Assembly: GCA_934162285.1 (NCBI GenBank)
Contig: CAKPHY010000001.1
Location: 6,510 to 70,509 of the forward strand
DNA: 64,000 nucleotides
Source of the DNA: an uncultured Bacilli bacterium
GTDB lineage: Bacteria > Bacillota_I > Bacilli_A > RF39 > UBA660
Direction: 5' to 3'
Position numbers and translations under genes: made by a program. Positions within the stretch are counted from its first letter, which is position 1. The number at the start of each line of letters is the position of its first letter. Below, one piece after another: positions 3,160 to 7,961 of the stretch. A model generated the notes under the pieces. That model had not been told where the DNA came from and did not search any database. It saw only the letters and a list, made by a program, of their open reading frames with translations.

Positions 3160-3657
3160 TTATTTTTGACTACATAATATTGTAAAATCTACAGTAAAAG
3201 GTGAAGCGTTATATGTTTCTTTTGATGTTCCATATGGCCAATAATAATATAAATTTACGTCTGTTGCTGTACCAGCTGCTAATGAACCTGTAAGAGTATC
3301 TGATTCATTAAGCTTTGTCGCATGAGCTGAATCTTTATATAAATTTAAATTTGGATGATTTGATCCCGTTCCAATATTTGTAAATTTAGTTAATGTTATT
3401 TTATAATCTGCTGCTATACTTGAAGCAATTGAGATTTTTGCCGAACCTGATGATCCTGGATATAAACTACCTAAATTAATTTCAAAGGGATCTCCATCTT
3501 CACCAACATTATTAGCAGTACAATTCCATGCTAAGACAGTACCTGATGCAGTACCAGTTATTGTATTTTGATAGTAGGCATATGTTCCTGCTGCAAAACC
3601 AATGGCTAAAACTGCTAAAGCTGCTCCAGCATATAATATTTTATTACCTTTCATCAT
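3160..3657 (-). CDS. small secreted TasA/CalY/BsaA-like protein with a SipW-cognate-type signal peptide (paralog 6)
   Basis: N-terminus MMKGNKILYAGAALAVLAIGFAAGTYAYYQNT, a charged start followed by a hydrophobic segment and G-T-Y-A-Y-Y, the class signature of SipW substrates. Shares LGSLYPG (cf. TasA NLSNLKPGD), W.C/F after the signal and a C-terminal YYYWPYG with its neighbours. Confidence 0.6.
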   Translation of the reverse strand: MMKGNKILYAGAALAVLAIGFAAGTYAYYQNTITGTASGTVLAWNCTANNVGEDGDPFEINLGSLYPGSSGSAKISIASSIAADYKITLTKFTNIGTGSNHPNLNLYKDSAHATKLNESDTLTGSLAAGTATDVNLYYYWPYGTSKETYNASPFTVDFTILCSQK

Positions 3658-3672
3658 TTTTCCTCCTTTTAA

Positions 3673-4239
3673 TTATGCTCCGCCATGAGGCTTTTGATCT
3701 TGTTGTGTACAAGTTACGTTTACAGTTATTTTAGCAGTTGATGCTGTTGATGGACCTTTTTCGGGTTGACCTTTTGGCCAAACCATATATAGGTTAACCG
3801 TGCCTGTTGCTGAACCACTTGATGTTGCATCTAATGTTGTAGAAGTTGTTGCTAGTTTACAAGTATCAGTTGCCGTGCCTGTTTTTGATAAACAATTAGC
3901 AGCTGATTGGTTAGTATTTGCTGTATAAAAATTGATGGCGCTTGGCAAGTTAGTAGCTCCGCTCAATTTAATATCAAATTTAGCTTTAAAATTCTTTAAA
4001 CTTAAATTTACAGGAACGGTTTTTGTAACCCCTGGTTTTAAGTTTCCTAAATCTAAAGTAAATGCTGATTCACTTCCTCCTGCTTTACATTCCCATGCAA
4101 CTATAGTTCCTTTTAATTGTCCGCCTATTGTACTTTGATAATAAGCATATGTTCCTGCTGACAACGCAATTGCAAATACCATCATGGCGATTCCTGCAAT
4201 TAATTTTGATTTGTTTTTTTTGTCTGTATGATCTTTCAT
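3673..4239 (-). CDS. TasA/CalY/BsaA-like secreted protein with a SipW-cognate-type signal peptide (paralog 5)
   Basis: AGTYAYYQSTIGG signal; LGNLKPGVTKTVPV motif as in TasA; C-terminal LYMVWPKG. Confidence 0.6.
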   Translation of the reverse strand: MKDHTDKKNKSKLIAGIAMMVFAIALSAGTYAYYQSTIGGQLKGTIVAWECKAGGSESAFTLDLGNLKPGVTKTVPVNLSLKNFKAKFDIKLSGATNLPSAINFYTANTNQSAANCLSKTGTATDTCKLATTSTTLDATSSGSATGTVNLYMVWPKGQPEKGPSTASTAKITVNVTCTQQDQKPHGGA

Positions 4240-4311
4240 TTGTTTCCTCCTCTACTATCTATCTTACTTAAGTATTATACAATAAATTGTATTGATAGAG
4301 AATAGTTTAAA

Positions 4312-4896
4312 CTATGCGTTAGGATTATGTTGCGTACCAACTACTTGAATTTTGAAACTTGCAGTTTTAGCTTCACTTGGACCTTTTTCGGCGGTACCAA
4401 GTGGCCAATTATAGTAAATTGTTACTGTGTCAGTTTTACCAGCAGATATTGCTCTAGTAATTGTATCACTTGACAAATCTAATTCACTTGTGTAACTTGC
4501 ATCTGTATAGAATTTCATATTAGTTGGAATATTAGTAGCAGTATTAAAAGATACTACAGCATCTACACCTAAGCCACTAGCAGCAGCTGACATGTTTAAT
4601 ACTATTGTGCCAGTTACACCTGGTTTTAAATCACCTAAACTCGCAACAAACTCTTGGGCGTCGCCTTTTTCATTTACCGTAAAACTCCAAGGAGTTATCG
4701 TACCAGTAATTCTACCACCAATTGCACTTTGATAATAAGCGTATGTCCCTGCGGAAATTCCAGCAGCGGCAACAATTAAGGCAAGACCAGCAATGATTGA
4801 TTTCTTTTCTTTACTCATTCCAGTTGGCTTTTTAGCTTCTGTAACTTTCTTTACTTCTTGCTTTGGCATTACTTTTTTTGTTTTAGTTTTTTCCAT
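4312..4896 (-). CDS. TasA/CalY/BsaA-like secreted protein with a Lys-rich N-terminal extension (paralog 4)
   Basis: SAGTYAYYQSAIGG; LGDLKPGVTG; YYNWPLG. The ATG at 4896 is preceded by GGAGGAG. The ORF track extends to 4932, overlapping the upstream gene. Confidence 0.6.
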   Translation of the reverse strand: MEKTKTKKVMPKQEVKKVTEAKKPTGMSKEKKSIIAGLALIVAAAGISAGTYAYYQSAIGGRITGTITPWSFTVNEKGDAQEFVASLGDLKPGVTGTIVLNMSAAASGLGVDAVVSFNTATNIPTNMKFYTDASYTSELDLSSDTITRAISAGKTDTVTIYYNWPLGTAEKGPSEAKTASFKIQVVGTQHNPNA

Positions 4897-4897
4897 T

Positions 4898-5398
4898 TTA
4901 CACTCCTCCACTAGGATCTTTTTGATGACCATTTATTGTCATATTAAACCAAGCTGTGCCTGGTATATACTTCTCGGCCGCTGATCCATACGGCCAATCG
5001 TAATATATTGTAATAACTGTCCTCTTCCCTGCAGTTAGGATGCCAGACAAAGTATCACCATCAAGGTTAATCTCTTGAGTCTTCGCTGAATCCGAATAAA
5101 ACTTGAGATTTTCAGGAATATTGTTGGGATAATTGAATTTAATTGTATATTCAACATCAACATCACTATTTTCAGCACTTAGTATTACTTGAAAGAGTTT
5201 ATCAATTCCTGGATATAAATTTCCTAAGTCAGTTGTGAATGATATGTTTTTATCATTAGCTTTAAATTCCCAACGTGCTAAAGTTATATTGGCTGTTCCT
5301 TTAACACTACTTACAAATCTTGCATAAGAAGTGGCAGCTAGAACGACAGCACCAATCATCAAGACTATACCTAAAGCAGTTAATATTTTATCTTTCAT
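4898..5398 (-). CDS. TasA/CalY/BsaA-like secreted protein (paralog 3)
   Basis: AATSYARFVSS signal; LGNLYPGIDK; YYDWPYG; AGGTGA Shine-Dalgarno upstream. Confidence 0.55.
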   Translation of the reverse strand: MKDKILTALGIVLMIGAVVLAATSYARFVSSVKGTANITLARWEFKANDKNISFTTDLGNLYPGIDKLFQVILSAENSDVDVEYTIKFNYPNNIPENLKFYSDSAKTQEINLDGDTLSGILTAGKRTVITIYYDWPYGSAAEKYIPGTAWFNMTINGHQKDPSGGV

Positions 5399-5405
5399 AT
5401 TTCAC

Positions 5406-6515: not shown

Positions 6516-7139
6516 CTATCCCTCTAATTCAATGGCAACTACTTTGAATGTTAAGTTGTAATCTACTCCATGCATCAATCCAATATTAGTATCAGCTTCA
6601 TTATCTTCACTGACCCACATCCACTCTAACTCGTATTTATCAGATTCTTTTGCGGATAGACTTATATCTTTTAATTGGATTTTATCATAATATTCCCAAT
6701 TAGTACCTCCAATAATATATTTACCATTTTCTTTCAATCTATACTTTATGTTTACTTTGTAAGGATTTTCTTCACTTAATGACAAAGTATAACTAATACT
6801 TTTGTTTCTAGTGTTTTGAATTTCAAATTCATAAGAGCCACGGTCATAAGGAGCTATAACATCACGCTCATTAACAGAGAATACATTTAGTGTTTCAGAC
6901 TTTTCCCAATCACCATCTTCATCACTTATTTTGATCAAGAACTTTTTAGGAGTTGGTTCGGGTGTAACTGGATGATGATTAGTTCCAAAATCAAAACCAA
7001 TCTTAAAAAATGCTATACCAAACACACTCAAAAATAATAAAAGCAGTAAAAGTAATAACCACTTACGATTATTTTTCTTTTCTTCTTTTTTATTTTGTTC
7101 ATTATTTTTATTTACTTTTTTTTGCTCCATAATAATCAT
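6516..7139 (-). CDS. secreted or membrane-anchored accessory protein (TapA-like position in the operon)
   Basis: Charged N-terminus then LLLLLLLLFLSVFGIAFF TM; no SipW-type motif; sits between the first paralog and sipW, as tapA does in the B. subtilis tapA-sipW-tasA operon. Confidence 0.4.
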   Translation of the reverse strand: MIIMEQKKVNKNNEQNKKEEKKNNRKWLLLLLLLLFLSVFGIAFFKIGFDFGTNHHPVTPEPTPKKFLIKISDEDGDWEKSETLNVFSVNERDVIAPYDRGSYEFEIQNTRNKSISYTLSLSEENPYKVNIKYRLKENGKYIIGGTNWEYYDKIQLKDISLSAKESDKYELEWMWVSEDNEADTNIGLMHGVDYNLTFKVVAIELEG

Positions 7140-7157
7140 TCTCCTGACGGAATAAAA

Positions 7158-7209
7158 TTTAACCTTCGTTAAAAAATACTTTTTAAAATATTCTTTAACG
7201 AGGGTTAAA
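7158..7209 (-). terminator. intra-operon hairpin (attenuator or partial terminator) downstream of the first TasA-like gene
   Basis: 16-bp arms TTTAACCTTCGTTAAA / TTTAACGAGGGTTAAA (15 of 16 complementary) with a 20-nt loop, followed on the minus strand by TTTTATT. Confidence 0.55.
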
Positions 7210-7232
7210 CCCTTGTTGACACGTTCCCTGAA

Positions 7233-7808
7233 TTAACCGTTTGGATTTACTTGATAACCAGTTACTGTTACAGGTAATGTTAAAGTTTGACCAGCAAATT
7301 CTGTTTCATCAGTTTCAGTATATAACCACTTCCAATAAATGTTTACAGTTTTTTGAGCACCTGCAGTAATAACATCACCACTAACGTTTGCTAATGGTTT
7401 TGTATATTGATCATCTGAATATAAAGCTAAGTTAGTTGGGATTTTATCTCCACTTAAGCCACCGAAGTTAGCATTATATGTAACATCAACATCACTACCT
7501 ACTGCTGATAATACTAATGGGAATACACCATATGAACCTGGTTGAATTCTTTTTTCACCATCAACCTCAACTAAGTTATAAGCAGTACCATCTGCTAAGT
7601 TAACTGAAAAGTCTGATGTTCCACCATTTACCATGAAAGACCAATCAGCAGTTTTTAATGTTGCTGATCCACCAACTACAGTTTGGAAACGAGCAAATGC
7701 ACCTACAAACAATCCAATAGCACAAGCAAACATAATTGCTGCTGCAATAAAGATTGTTTTATCGTTCTTCTTTGTTGATTTTTTCATTTTCTTCCTCCTT
7801 ACCCTCAT
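7233..7808 (-). CDS. TasA/CalY/BsaA-like secreted protein (paralog 1, first gene of the locus)
   Basis: GAFARFQTVVGG signal; ADWSFMVNGG; YWKW C-terminal motif; followed by a strong hairpin. Confidence 0.55.
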   Translation of the reverse strand: MRVRRKKMKKSTKKNDKTIFIAAAIMFACAIGLFVGAFARFQTVVGGSATLKTADWSFMVNGGTSDFSVNLADGTAYNLVEVDGEKRIQPGSYGVFPLVLSAVGSDVDVTYNANFGGLSGDKIPTNLALYSDDQYTKPLANVSGDVITAGAQKTVNIYWKWLYTETDETEFAGQTLTLPVTVTGYQVNPNG

Positions 7809-7919
7809 AAATAAATTATAATTTATATGTTAAATTTTGGCGTGTCCTTCCAAAATGAAACATCTAATATAATCTGCTTTAGGTTTCCTATCCTATCGCT
7901 ATATTAAATATACAACATT

Positions 7920-7926
7920 TGTCGAA
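7920..7926 (+). promoter_or_regulatory. Spo0A-box-like heptamer (TGTCGAA) about 115 bp upstream of the TasA-like operon
   Basis: Exact match to the 0A-box consensus TGTCGAA; spo0A is encoded in the same window. Confidence 0.3.
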
Positions 7927-7961
7927 CAAAGTCAATTAATGGTTAAAATATTTTACAATTA

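Follow-up and report, generated by a model that had tools for sequence, protein, structure and literature searches.

A SipW-linked array of pilin-like subunit genes, a candidate surface-fibre operon of an uncultured gut Erysipelotrichaceae bacterium

What might an uncultured gut bacterium build with six related exported proteins that are encoded together with their own signal peptidase? This question is raised by a locus in a 64-kb (64,000-nucleotide) stretch of DNA, hereafter the window, from contig CAKPHY010000001.1 of assembly GCA_934162285.1. On its minus strand, from position 7935 to 3146, eight closely packed genes encode six exported paralogs (P1 to P6), an accessory protein (ACC) and a signal peptidase. 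The initial annotation of this DNA had described six tandem paralogs with a peptidase and an accessory gene, and all eight open reading frames (ORFs) are indeed found on that strand at the same coordinates. We favour, with slightly better than even confidence, the reading that this operon encodes a cell-attached, multi-subunit, pilus-like surface fibre of an uncultured gut Erysipelotrichaceae bacterium.

Surface fibres of Gram-positive bacteria are made by well-established routes, namely sortase pili, type IV pili and TasA/BsaA-type donor-strand fibres. The locus points to a large unmodelled family that apparently takes the donor-strand route, has a different subunit fold, brings its own membrane anchor and comprises as many as eight types of subunit. 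The host lineage is abundant in the human gut and uncultured, and it appears to exchange the two distal subunits between strains. If true, this would explain in testable terms how polymerisation is gated by a SipW cut and how the fibre is anchored, supply family models for thousands of 'hypothetical' proteins, and reveal, in gut commensals, a surface antigen or adhesin that varies from strain to strain.

Gene content and processing signals of the array

P1 (7787..7233, 184 aa) is the first gene and encodes a pilin-like subunit with the signal end VGAFA/RFQ, in which the slash marks the predicted cut. An AGGAGG lies 7 nt ahead of its ATG at 7787, and metagenomes give the same 184-aa gene call; throughout the locus, gene starts are supported by ribosome-binding sites and agree with independent gene calls on metagenome contigs. 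P1 is followed by ACC (7130..6516, 204 aa), a probably membrane-anchored distant paralog of the subunits, and by the peptidase (6514..5948, 188 aa), whose stop codon overlaps the start of P2 (5951..5406, 181 aa), a divergent subunit with the signal end GIAYA/YYK and one Cys pair but without W.F. The remaining subunits are P3 (5398..4898, 166 aa, ATSYA/RFV), P4 (4896..4312, 194 aa, with a long Lys-rich N-region and AGTYA/YYQ), P5 (4239..3673, 188 aa, four Cys) and P6 (3657..3160, 165 aa, two Cys). A promoter-like site, TTGACT-17-TATATT (7935..7907, minus strand, 10 of 12 consensus matches), is located ~120 nt ahead of P1, in the gap that separates it from an amidase gene, and is the best-scoring one on this strand in the region, as judged by consensus match only, while an intrinsic-terminator-like hairpin with a T-run (3161..3146, minus strand) stands directly 3' of the P6 stop codon. 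The eight genes, lying between one promoter-like site and one terminator, are candidates for co-transcription.

The six paralogs are mutually alignable, with 22-35% identity to P1, and match a hidden Markov model (HMM) of the subunit family at E values of 1e-29 to 1e-53 (P1 1e-52, P2 9e-29); in the rest of the 64-kb window ACC alone matches, weakly (E 1.5e-7). Their mature domains comprise ~140-165 aa. The motifs quoted in the initial annotation are all present, but not in all six proteins: AGTYAYYQ occurs in P4-P6 only, with the variants VGAFARFQ, GIAYAYYK and ATSYARFV in P1, P2 and P3, respectively. L(G)[ND]L[KY]PG and YY.WP.G-like motifs are carried by P3-P6, W.F by P1, P3 and P4, and W.C by P5 and P6. 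Cys residues are paired: P6-type subunits have a Cys at W+2 and another close to the C-terminus, P5-type subunits have four Cys and P2-type subunits two. In 47 of 48 proteins a Cys at W+2 is accompanied by an even Cys count and a Cys near the C-terminus, a co-occurrence which suggests that the first strand after the N-terminal extension is tied to the last strand, in the same subunit or in another one.

The peptidase inside the array scores 80 bits against TIGR02228, the model of archaeal/ER-type (endoplasmic reticulum-type) signal peptidase I (cut-off 51.85), also matches Peptidase_S26 in Pfam, and possesses transmembrane segments at its N- and C-terminal ends. With its catalytic boxes GSM (S75), THR (H111) and GDYNN (D126), it can be confirmed as the SipW-like enzyme of archaeal/ER type that had been recognized there. 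Its score against the Bacillus SipW equivalog model NF046067 is 59.8, below the cut-off of 190, and it is therefore regarded as a family member and not as a strict SipW ortholog. As well, two SipW-like peptidase genes, one ahead of the first pilin gene and one after the ACC gene, are present in distant relatives of the locus (L013, 7221-7865 and 10259-10828; L015, 494-1135 and 2686-3078).

These features bear on the known Gram-positive pili. That the operon encodes a sortase-assembled or type IV pilus is effectively refuted by the sequences, and we give this explanation almost no weight. The subunit C-termini end in ...Q.[ND]P[NS]G without LPXTG or a hydrophobic tail, and neither an LPXTG-type signal nor a sortase gene was found in the operon or its flanks. 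A weak match of P3 to archaeal Pilin_N (E 0.006; 17.8 bits with a cut-off of 25.2) and an N_methyl (type IV pilin-like) gene that metagenome contigs show ~3.5 kb past the locus might recall type IV pili; however, the cleavage motif sits after, not before, the hydrophobic segment, unlike in class III signals, and the operon contains no gene for a prepilin peptidase, an assembly ATPase or a platform protein.

The subunit family compared with TasA, BsaA and chaperone-usher pilins

With a threshold of E<=1e-3, an exhaustive profile search returned 3281 representatives of clusters at 50% identity, of which 779 also pass E<=1e-10. When 5.8 billion proteins were searched by word index, only 84 clusters were returned for the subunits, none of them named or with a Pfam domain, and 10 clusters for ACC. 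The N-terminal pattern of the family consists of a hydrophobic h-region, G-T-[YFL]-A-[KRY]-[YF], A-x-W-x-F, (I/L)-x-P-G and W-x-W, and the most conserved part is the segment right after the cleavage site, which is unstructured in the monomer model. Some members reach 400-890 aa and carry C-terminal adhesin-type domains; among 76 sampled relatives, the only recurrent Pfam or NCBIfam matches are C-terminal DUF285/PARCEL, GLUG, LRR and Flg_new domains in such long members. The subunits are thus a large family without a curated Pfam or NCBIfam model.

The initial annotation had read the array as TasA/BsaA-like, and the proteins might accordingly be true but divergent members of that family, in which case the operon would be an expanded tapA-sipW-tasA or sipW-bsaABC, the product a released biofilm-matrix fibre, and ACC a TapA. 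We consider this unlikely. In its favour, an hhalign comparison of the subunit family with the TasA family scored 75-85% (E 6e-6 to 2.5e-5) at full length, but nothing beyond the signal peptide, GT[YW]A and the L.PG strand is aligned; the mature parts alone scored 2.7% (E 0.017, 22 columns), with a reversed-sequence control at 0.1-0.2%. The mature N-terminus of TasA used for this comparison is A28 (GGGTWA/AFND), and its sequence was checked residue for residue against 8AUR. PF12389 (Peptidase_M73) matches none of the six paralogs and ACC at E<=1 and none of the 76 distant family members at E<=0.01, while all 120 listed TasA homologs carry it, which indicates that the model is sensitive within the true TasA family. 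The model of the SipW-cognate signal, TIGR04088, which is short and yields inherently low scores, matches nothing among the window proteins at E<=1 and one of the 76 relatives (E 0.006). On the other hand, the BsaA/TasA family has been described as extremely divergent in sequence, with only 632 of its 2172 proteins in Peptidase_M73, and as including an Ig-like fold, members from Erysipelotrichales (Coprobacillaceae) and multi-paralog operons (PMC11580942). The comparisons suggest that the TasA likeness is confined to the export and cleavage signal, that is, to a shared type of processing, and family membership is not established.

The likeness in gene organization is nevertheless considerable. 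As in B. subtilis tapA-sipW-tasA and B. cereus sipW-tasA/capP/calY, an archaeal/ER-type SipW peptidase is encoded beside its presumed substrates, and ACC lies just upstream of the peptidase gene as tapA adjoins sipW. Similar to TasA, the subunits possess a signal end of the type G-T-[WY]-A and an aromatic-rich mature N-terminus, followed by the L.PG strand. TasA polymerises via N-terminal donor-strand exchange (PMC9674648), and in B. cereus two paralogs co-polymerise as heterofilaments with the aid of an accessory protein (PMC13082335). However, the mature domain is ~230 aa in TasA and ~140-165 aa here, no sequence homology is detectable between them, the TasA systems have one or two subunit genes and the arrays here six to eight, and ACC, as a probable membrane-anchored subunit paralog, is a homolog of neither TapA nor CapP.

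BsaA of C. perfringens, a beta-rich protein of ~23 kDa, requires SipW for secretion and polymerisation; donor-strand exchange has been predicted for it, in which tethered subunits are added and then released by SipW cleavage (PMC7395162, PMC11580942). The same authors noted operons with multiple paralogs and possible heteropolymers (PMC11580942). As in sipW-bsaA-bsaB-bsaC, the SipW gene heads or lies within the operon, a comparison that was made by published description only. Unlike bsa, the operon studied here encodes neither a vWA protein (BsaC) nor a two-component system, and a membrane-anchored paralog such as ACC is undescribed for bsa. BsaA features an Asn-Glu-Lys isopeptide triad; several subunits here have conserved Cys pairs. 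The main caveat of our analysis is that the subunit family was compared with BsaA by description only.

An AlphaFold2 model of P6 (predicted local distance difference test, pLDDT, 81; predicted template modelling score 0.66) comprises a signal helix and a sandwich of eight strands, with residues 25-45 disordered. Structure prediction had been suggested as a test for the TasA jelly-roll; the top structural neighbours in the PDB are CsuA/B, the FimH/PapG pilin domains, FimG/FimF and CupE, and TasA is absent from the returned lists of neighbours. The nearest solved folds are therefore donor-strand-complemented chaperone-usher pilins, with modest similarity scores, which are no proof of homology and could stem from convergence towards a generic sandwich. 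PDB sequence searches with three profiles gave matches at chance level only, with no solved structure related in sequence. Pfam and NCBIfam scans of the window proteins and of the 76 distant relatives found no SCPU or fimbrial family, and the match of P5 to an NCBIfam fimbria assembly protein is weak (E 0.027; 14 bits with a cut-off of 168).

The likeness to archaic chaperone-usher pili (Acinetobacter CsuA/B; Fim/Pap) extends to an Ig-like subunit fold, as modelled, with an N-terminal extension, to several related subunit genes of which the putative major subunit comes first and is followed by a stem-loop, and to an extension-less subunit that would stand at one end of the fibre. In contrast to these pili, the host is a Gram-positive-type Firmicute without an outer membrane, the operon contains no chaperone or usher ORFs, and processing is assigned to an archaeal-type peptidase. 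Chaperone-free donor-strand fibres with small beta-rich subunits are also described from archaea, namely AbpA bundling pili, Sulfolobus threads and haloarchaeal tafi (PMC9245690, PMC9715654, PMC11821415). Strand donation there follows removal of the signal peptide, which would be similar here, and some of the filaments have several subunit types, such as TafA/C/E; most of them use a general signal peptidase or the Tat route and not an operon-encoded SipW. No archaeal filament appears among the top PDB neighbours, and no sequence relationship to them was detected.

The accessory protein and a candidate assembly route

ACC contains, in order, a Lys-rich cytoplasmic tail, a poly-Leu transmembrane helix, a Pro-rich linker, the beta-strand KFLIKIS and a beta-sandwich core, the last of these according to a structure model with a nine-sequence input (pLDDT 72). 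It has neither the GT.A cleavage motif nor the W.F N-terminal extension of the subunits. In an hhalign comparison, its C-terminal 97 columns scored 93% against the subunit family (E 2.6e-7), with APYD.G.YEF aligned to IAPG..GSF and YELEWMW to IYW.WPY. Judged from these alignments, ACC is a distant seventh paralog of the subunits. The initial annotation had called it a secreted accessory protein in the position of TapA, but the N-terminal transmembrane helix and the lack of a G-T-Y-A-type motif indicate that it is probably membrane-anchored, and no similarity to TapA (6HQC) was found.

In relatives, ACC is enlarged by inserted sequence that separates the membrane-proximal strand from the core. 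These stalk variants include two Big_2-like domains in L007 (383 aa), a CarboxypepD_reg-like domain with a long Pro/Glu-rich linker in L013 (524 aa), and a 564-aa form in L017. The combination of a membrane anchor, a variable wall-spanning stalk and a subunit-like head is as expected of a fibre anchor, and ACC is proposed to be the membrane anchor or terminator or, alternatively, the initiator of the fibre. Both the uncleaved anchor and its stalk variants point to a cell-attached structure and not to the released matrix that true TasA/BsaA membership would entail.

According to the fibre reading, which follows the membrane-tethered subunit addition proposed for BsaA (PMC11580942), the subunits would be exported by Sec and kept tethered by their signal peptides. 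The SipW-like peptidase of the operon would then cut after G-T-[YF]-A, by analogy with G-T-W-A/A in TasA, and thereby free a conserved N-terminal extension of ~18-20 residues (YYQ.TI.G...GT[IV].AW.[FC]). This extension, which is disordered in the monomer model, might slot into the sandwich of the adjacent subunit and act as its donor strand, in the manner of TasA/BsaA fibres and chaperone-usher pili; strand donation has been shown for TasA and TapA (PMC9674648, PMC10151520). ACC, with an acceptor core but no cleavage site or extension, would stay in the membrane and anchor and/or terminate the fibre, and its stalk in some relatives would be long enough to span the cell wall. P1 is the candidate major subunit and would make up the bulk of the fibre, being the first gene, conserved and followed by a conserved stem-loop. 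P2 is found invariably directly after the peptidase gene, even in the distant locus L013, and because of this constant coupling it might be a core adaptor. P3-P6 would be lineage-specific additions, of which P5 and P6 are presumably exposed and exchanged between strains by recombination, with antigenic or phage-receptor variation as a possible outcome.

Several points weigh against this account. Donor-strand exchange is argued by analogy, and the cleavage site is likewise predicted by analogy. The mature domains have no detectable homology to any known fibre-forming protein. ACC could act either as acceptor or anchor or as donor or initiator, since KFLIKIS could itself be a donor strand. Moreover, L027 and L029 encode large surface proteins of 540-887 aa, some of them in tandem (L027 1350-6077; L029 29-1813 and 6027-7649), which have an N-terminal pilin-like domain with the same type of signal, followed by DUF285/PARCEL-type domains. 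Neither a SipW nor an ACC gene is present within 8 kb of them, and the domain is thus not always part of such a module. These proteins may serve as tip adhesins or represent independent uses of the domain.

In a different explanation, the paralogs are non-polymerising surface or secreted proteins, such as variable adhesins, lectin-like binders or a coat, that have a peptidase in common, were duplicated under pressure from host or phage, and stand beside an ACC that is only incidentally membrane-bound. Polymerisation is inferred here by analogy, the stand-alone large proteins of L027 and L029 would be at home in such a scheme, and hypervariability of P5 and P6 (see below) fits any exposed antigen. 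Even so, this explanation seems improbable to us, since it leaves unexplained why a SipW-type peptidase and an anchored paralog are kept beside the subunits across distant lineages, why the post-cleavage segment is the most conserved one yet unstructured in the monomer model, and why the best structural neighbours are donor-strand-completed pilins.

SipW-dependent donor-strand fibres as such are already known from TasA and BsaA. We found no literature description of the subunit family, of the stalked membrane-anchored paralog, of six-to-eight-gene arrays, of strain-level cassette variation or of the intercistronic element described below. A generalisation of the fibre reading would be a widespread, unrecognised class of Gram-positive pili, which consist of Ig-fold subunits similar to chaperone-usher pilins, assemble by donor-strand exchange without chaperone or usher, are triggered when SipW cleavage frees the donor strand, use an uncleavable ACC, in some cases with a wall-spanning stalk, as anchor and terminator, carry long members as tip adhesins and, in this gut lineage, swap P5 and P6 between strains as antigenic or phage-receptor variants. 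We put this forward tentatively and hold it to be rather doubtful.

Conservation, strain variation and elements around the array

Exact copies of the proteins are present in many human-gut metagenome assemblies, and one NCBI metagenome-assembled genome lists them as 'hypothetical protein [Erysipelotrichaceae bacterium]'. A locus search with the peptidase as query yielded only three species-level loci. In related species the order P1-ACC-SPase-P2-P3... (SPase, the signal peptidase) is kept, with 6 subunits in L009, 7 in L007 and L021, and 8 in L008. In L012, a strain of the species of the window, a P4/P5 chimera of 210 aa leaves 5 subunits and one gene fewer. Comparison across related loci, which had been suggested at the outset, has therefore revealed copy-number variation, with 5, 6, 7 or 8 subunits. 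Distant Firmicutes of higher GC content contain the arrangements SipW-pilin-ACC-SipW-pilin (L013), SipW-pilin-ACC-SipW (L015) and pilin-ACC-pilin (L028), and the pilin-ACC-SipW module is conserved in these lineages. A further, partial match to the subunit HMM (E ~1e-7) was noticed ~3.6 kb downstream of the array in L007 (15526-15855) and L021 (11417-11722), past an epimerase gene and the gene of an 817-aa multi-pass membrane protein, at the edge of the sequence examined.

Strains of the same species differ mainly at the distal end of the array. P1 is 96-99% identical between strains, and P3 is also conserved, while P4 is partly variable and has recombined with P5 in some strains. The amino acid identity of P5 is 77-82% between strains, with a hypervariable mature domain, and that of P6, the most variable gene of the operon, is 70-73%. 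For instance, in a strain in which ClpB, ACC, the peptidase and LysM proteins are 100% identical, P4 is 94%, P5 77% and P6 70% identical. Nucleotide identity to L010, L011 and L012 is 69-94% within 4750..3100 and 96-100% elsewhere. The hypervariable block has sharp bounds and takes in the mature regions of P5 and P6 and part of that of P4. Synonymous divergence (dS) is 0.35-0.47 in this block and at most ~0.12 in other genes, with a ratio of nonsynonymous to synonymous divergence (dN/dS) of 0.25-0.54. The rise of dS along with dN indicates that divergent alleles were brought in by recombination, and the many P5 clusters, with 77-89% identity and one common signal peptide, fit allele replacement. 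Positive selection on P5 and P6 in its simple form, that is, by local adaptive point mutation, was rejected on account of the same dS and dN/dS values.

Between P1 and ACC, an intercistronic stem-loop (7213..7154, minus strand) of ~60 nt forms 27 pairs, with a dG of -28.8 kcal/mol and a z score of -4.3. It is almost invariant and occurs once per related locus (L007 from 6750, L008 from 7257, L009 from 7253, and also L017-L026), although P1 is only 48-69% and the flanking proteins only 48-70% identical; in the distant L013, a hairpin of the same shape stands in the same place. Compensatory changes occur only near the apex, and G-U pairs are found on the sense strand only. An Rfam scan of the whole window returned no family, and the stem-loop has no match there. 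In fimbrial operons, stem-loops after the first subunit gene set the excess of the major pilin, and the position of the stem-loop here is similar. Partial termination, or else mRNA processing or stabilisation, at this element may set the ratio of P1 to downstream expression. An internal promoter before P5 was also considered and rejected: the P4-P5 spacer contains a TATAAT, but a convincing -35 element and significant RNA structure are both lacking there.

Some neighbouring genes deserve mention as well. Upstream of the operon (7962-9557, minus strand) lies a gene for a 531-aa Amidase_3 protein with Fn3_assoc/CHB_HEX_C domains, whose N-terminal half is extremely AT-rich (GC 14-19% at 8501-9500). 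L008 has this gene in the same position (53% identity), and L007 and L009 lack it; its product may be a wall hydrolase, with an unproven link to the fibre. Two genes downstream of the operon (2134-2559, minus strand) is a PedC-like thioredoxin-fold lipoprotein with the lipobox LCGC and the active site CSAC, which could serve as the oxidant of the conserved Cys pairs in P2, P5 and P6. Its ortholog is found at 11798-12232 in L009, and in L007 and L008 it is not adjacent to the operon. Finally, a full-length ClpB (9600-11699, minus strand, 699 aa) and a 338-aa single-AAA protein (1115-2131, minus strand) flank the operon on opposite sides; the latter is ~37% identical to the N-terminal AAA module of ClpB and is conserved in L009.

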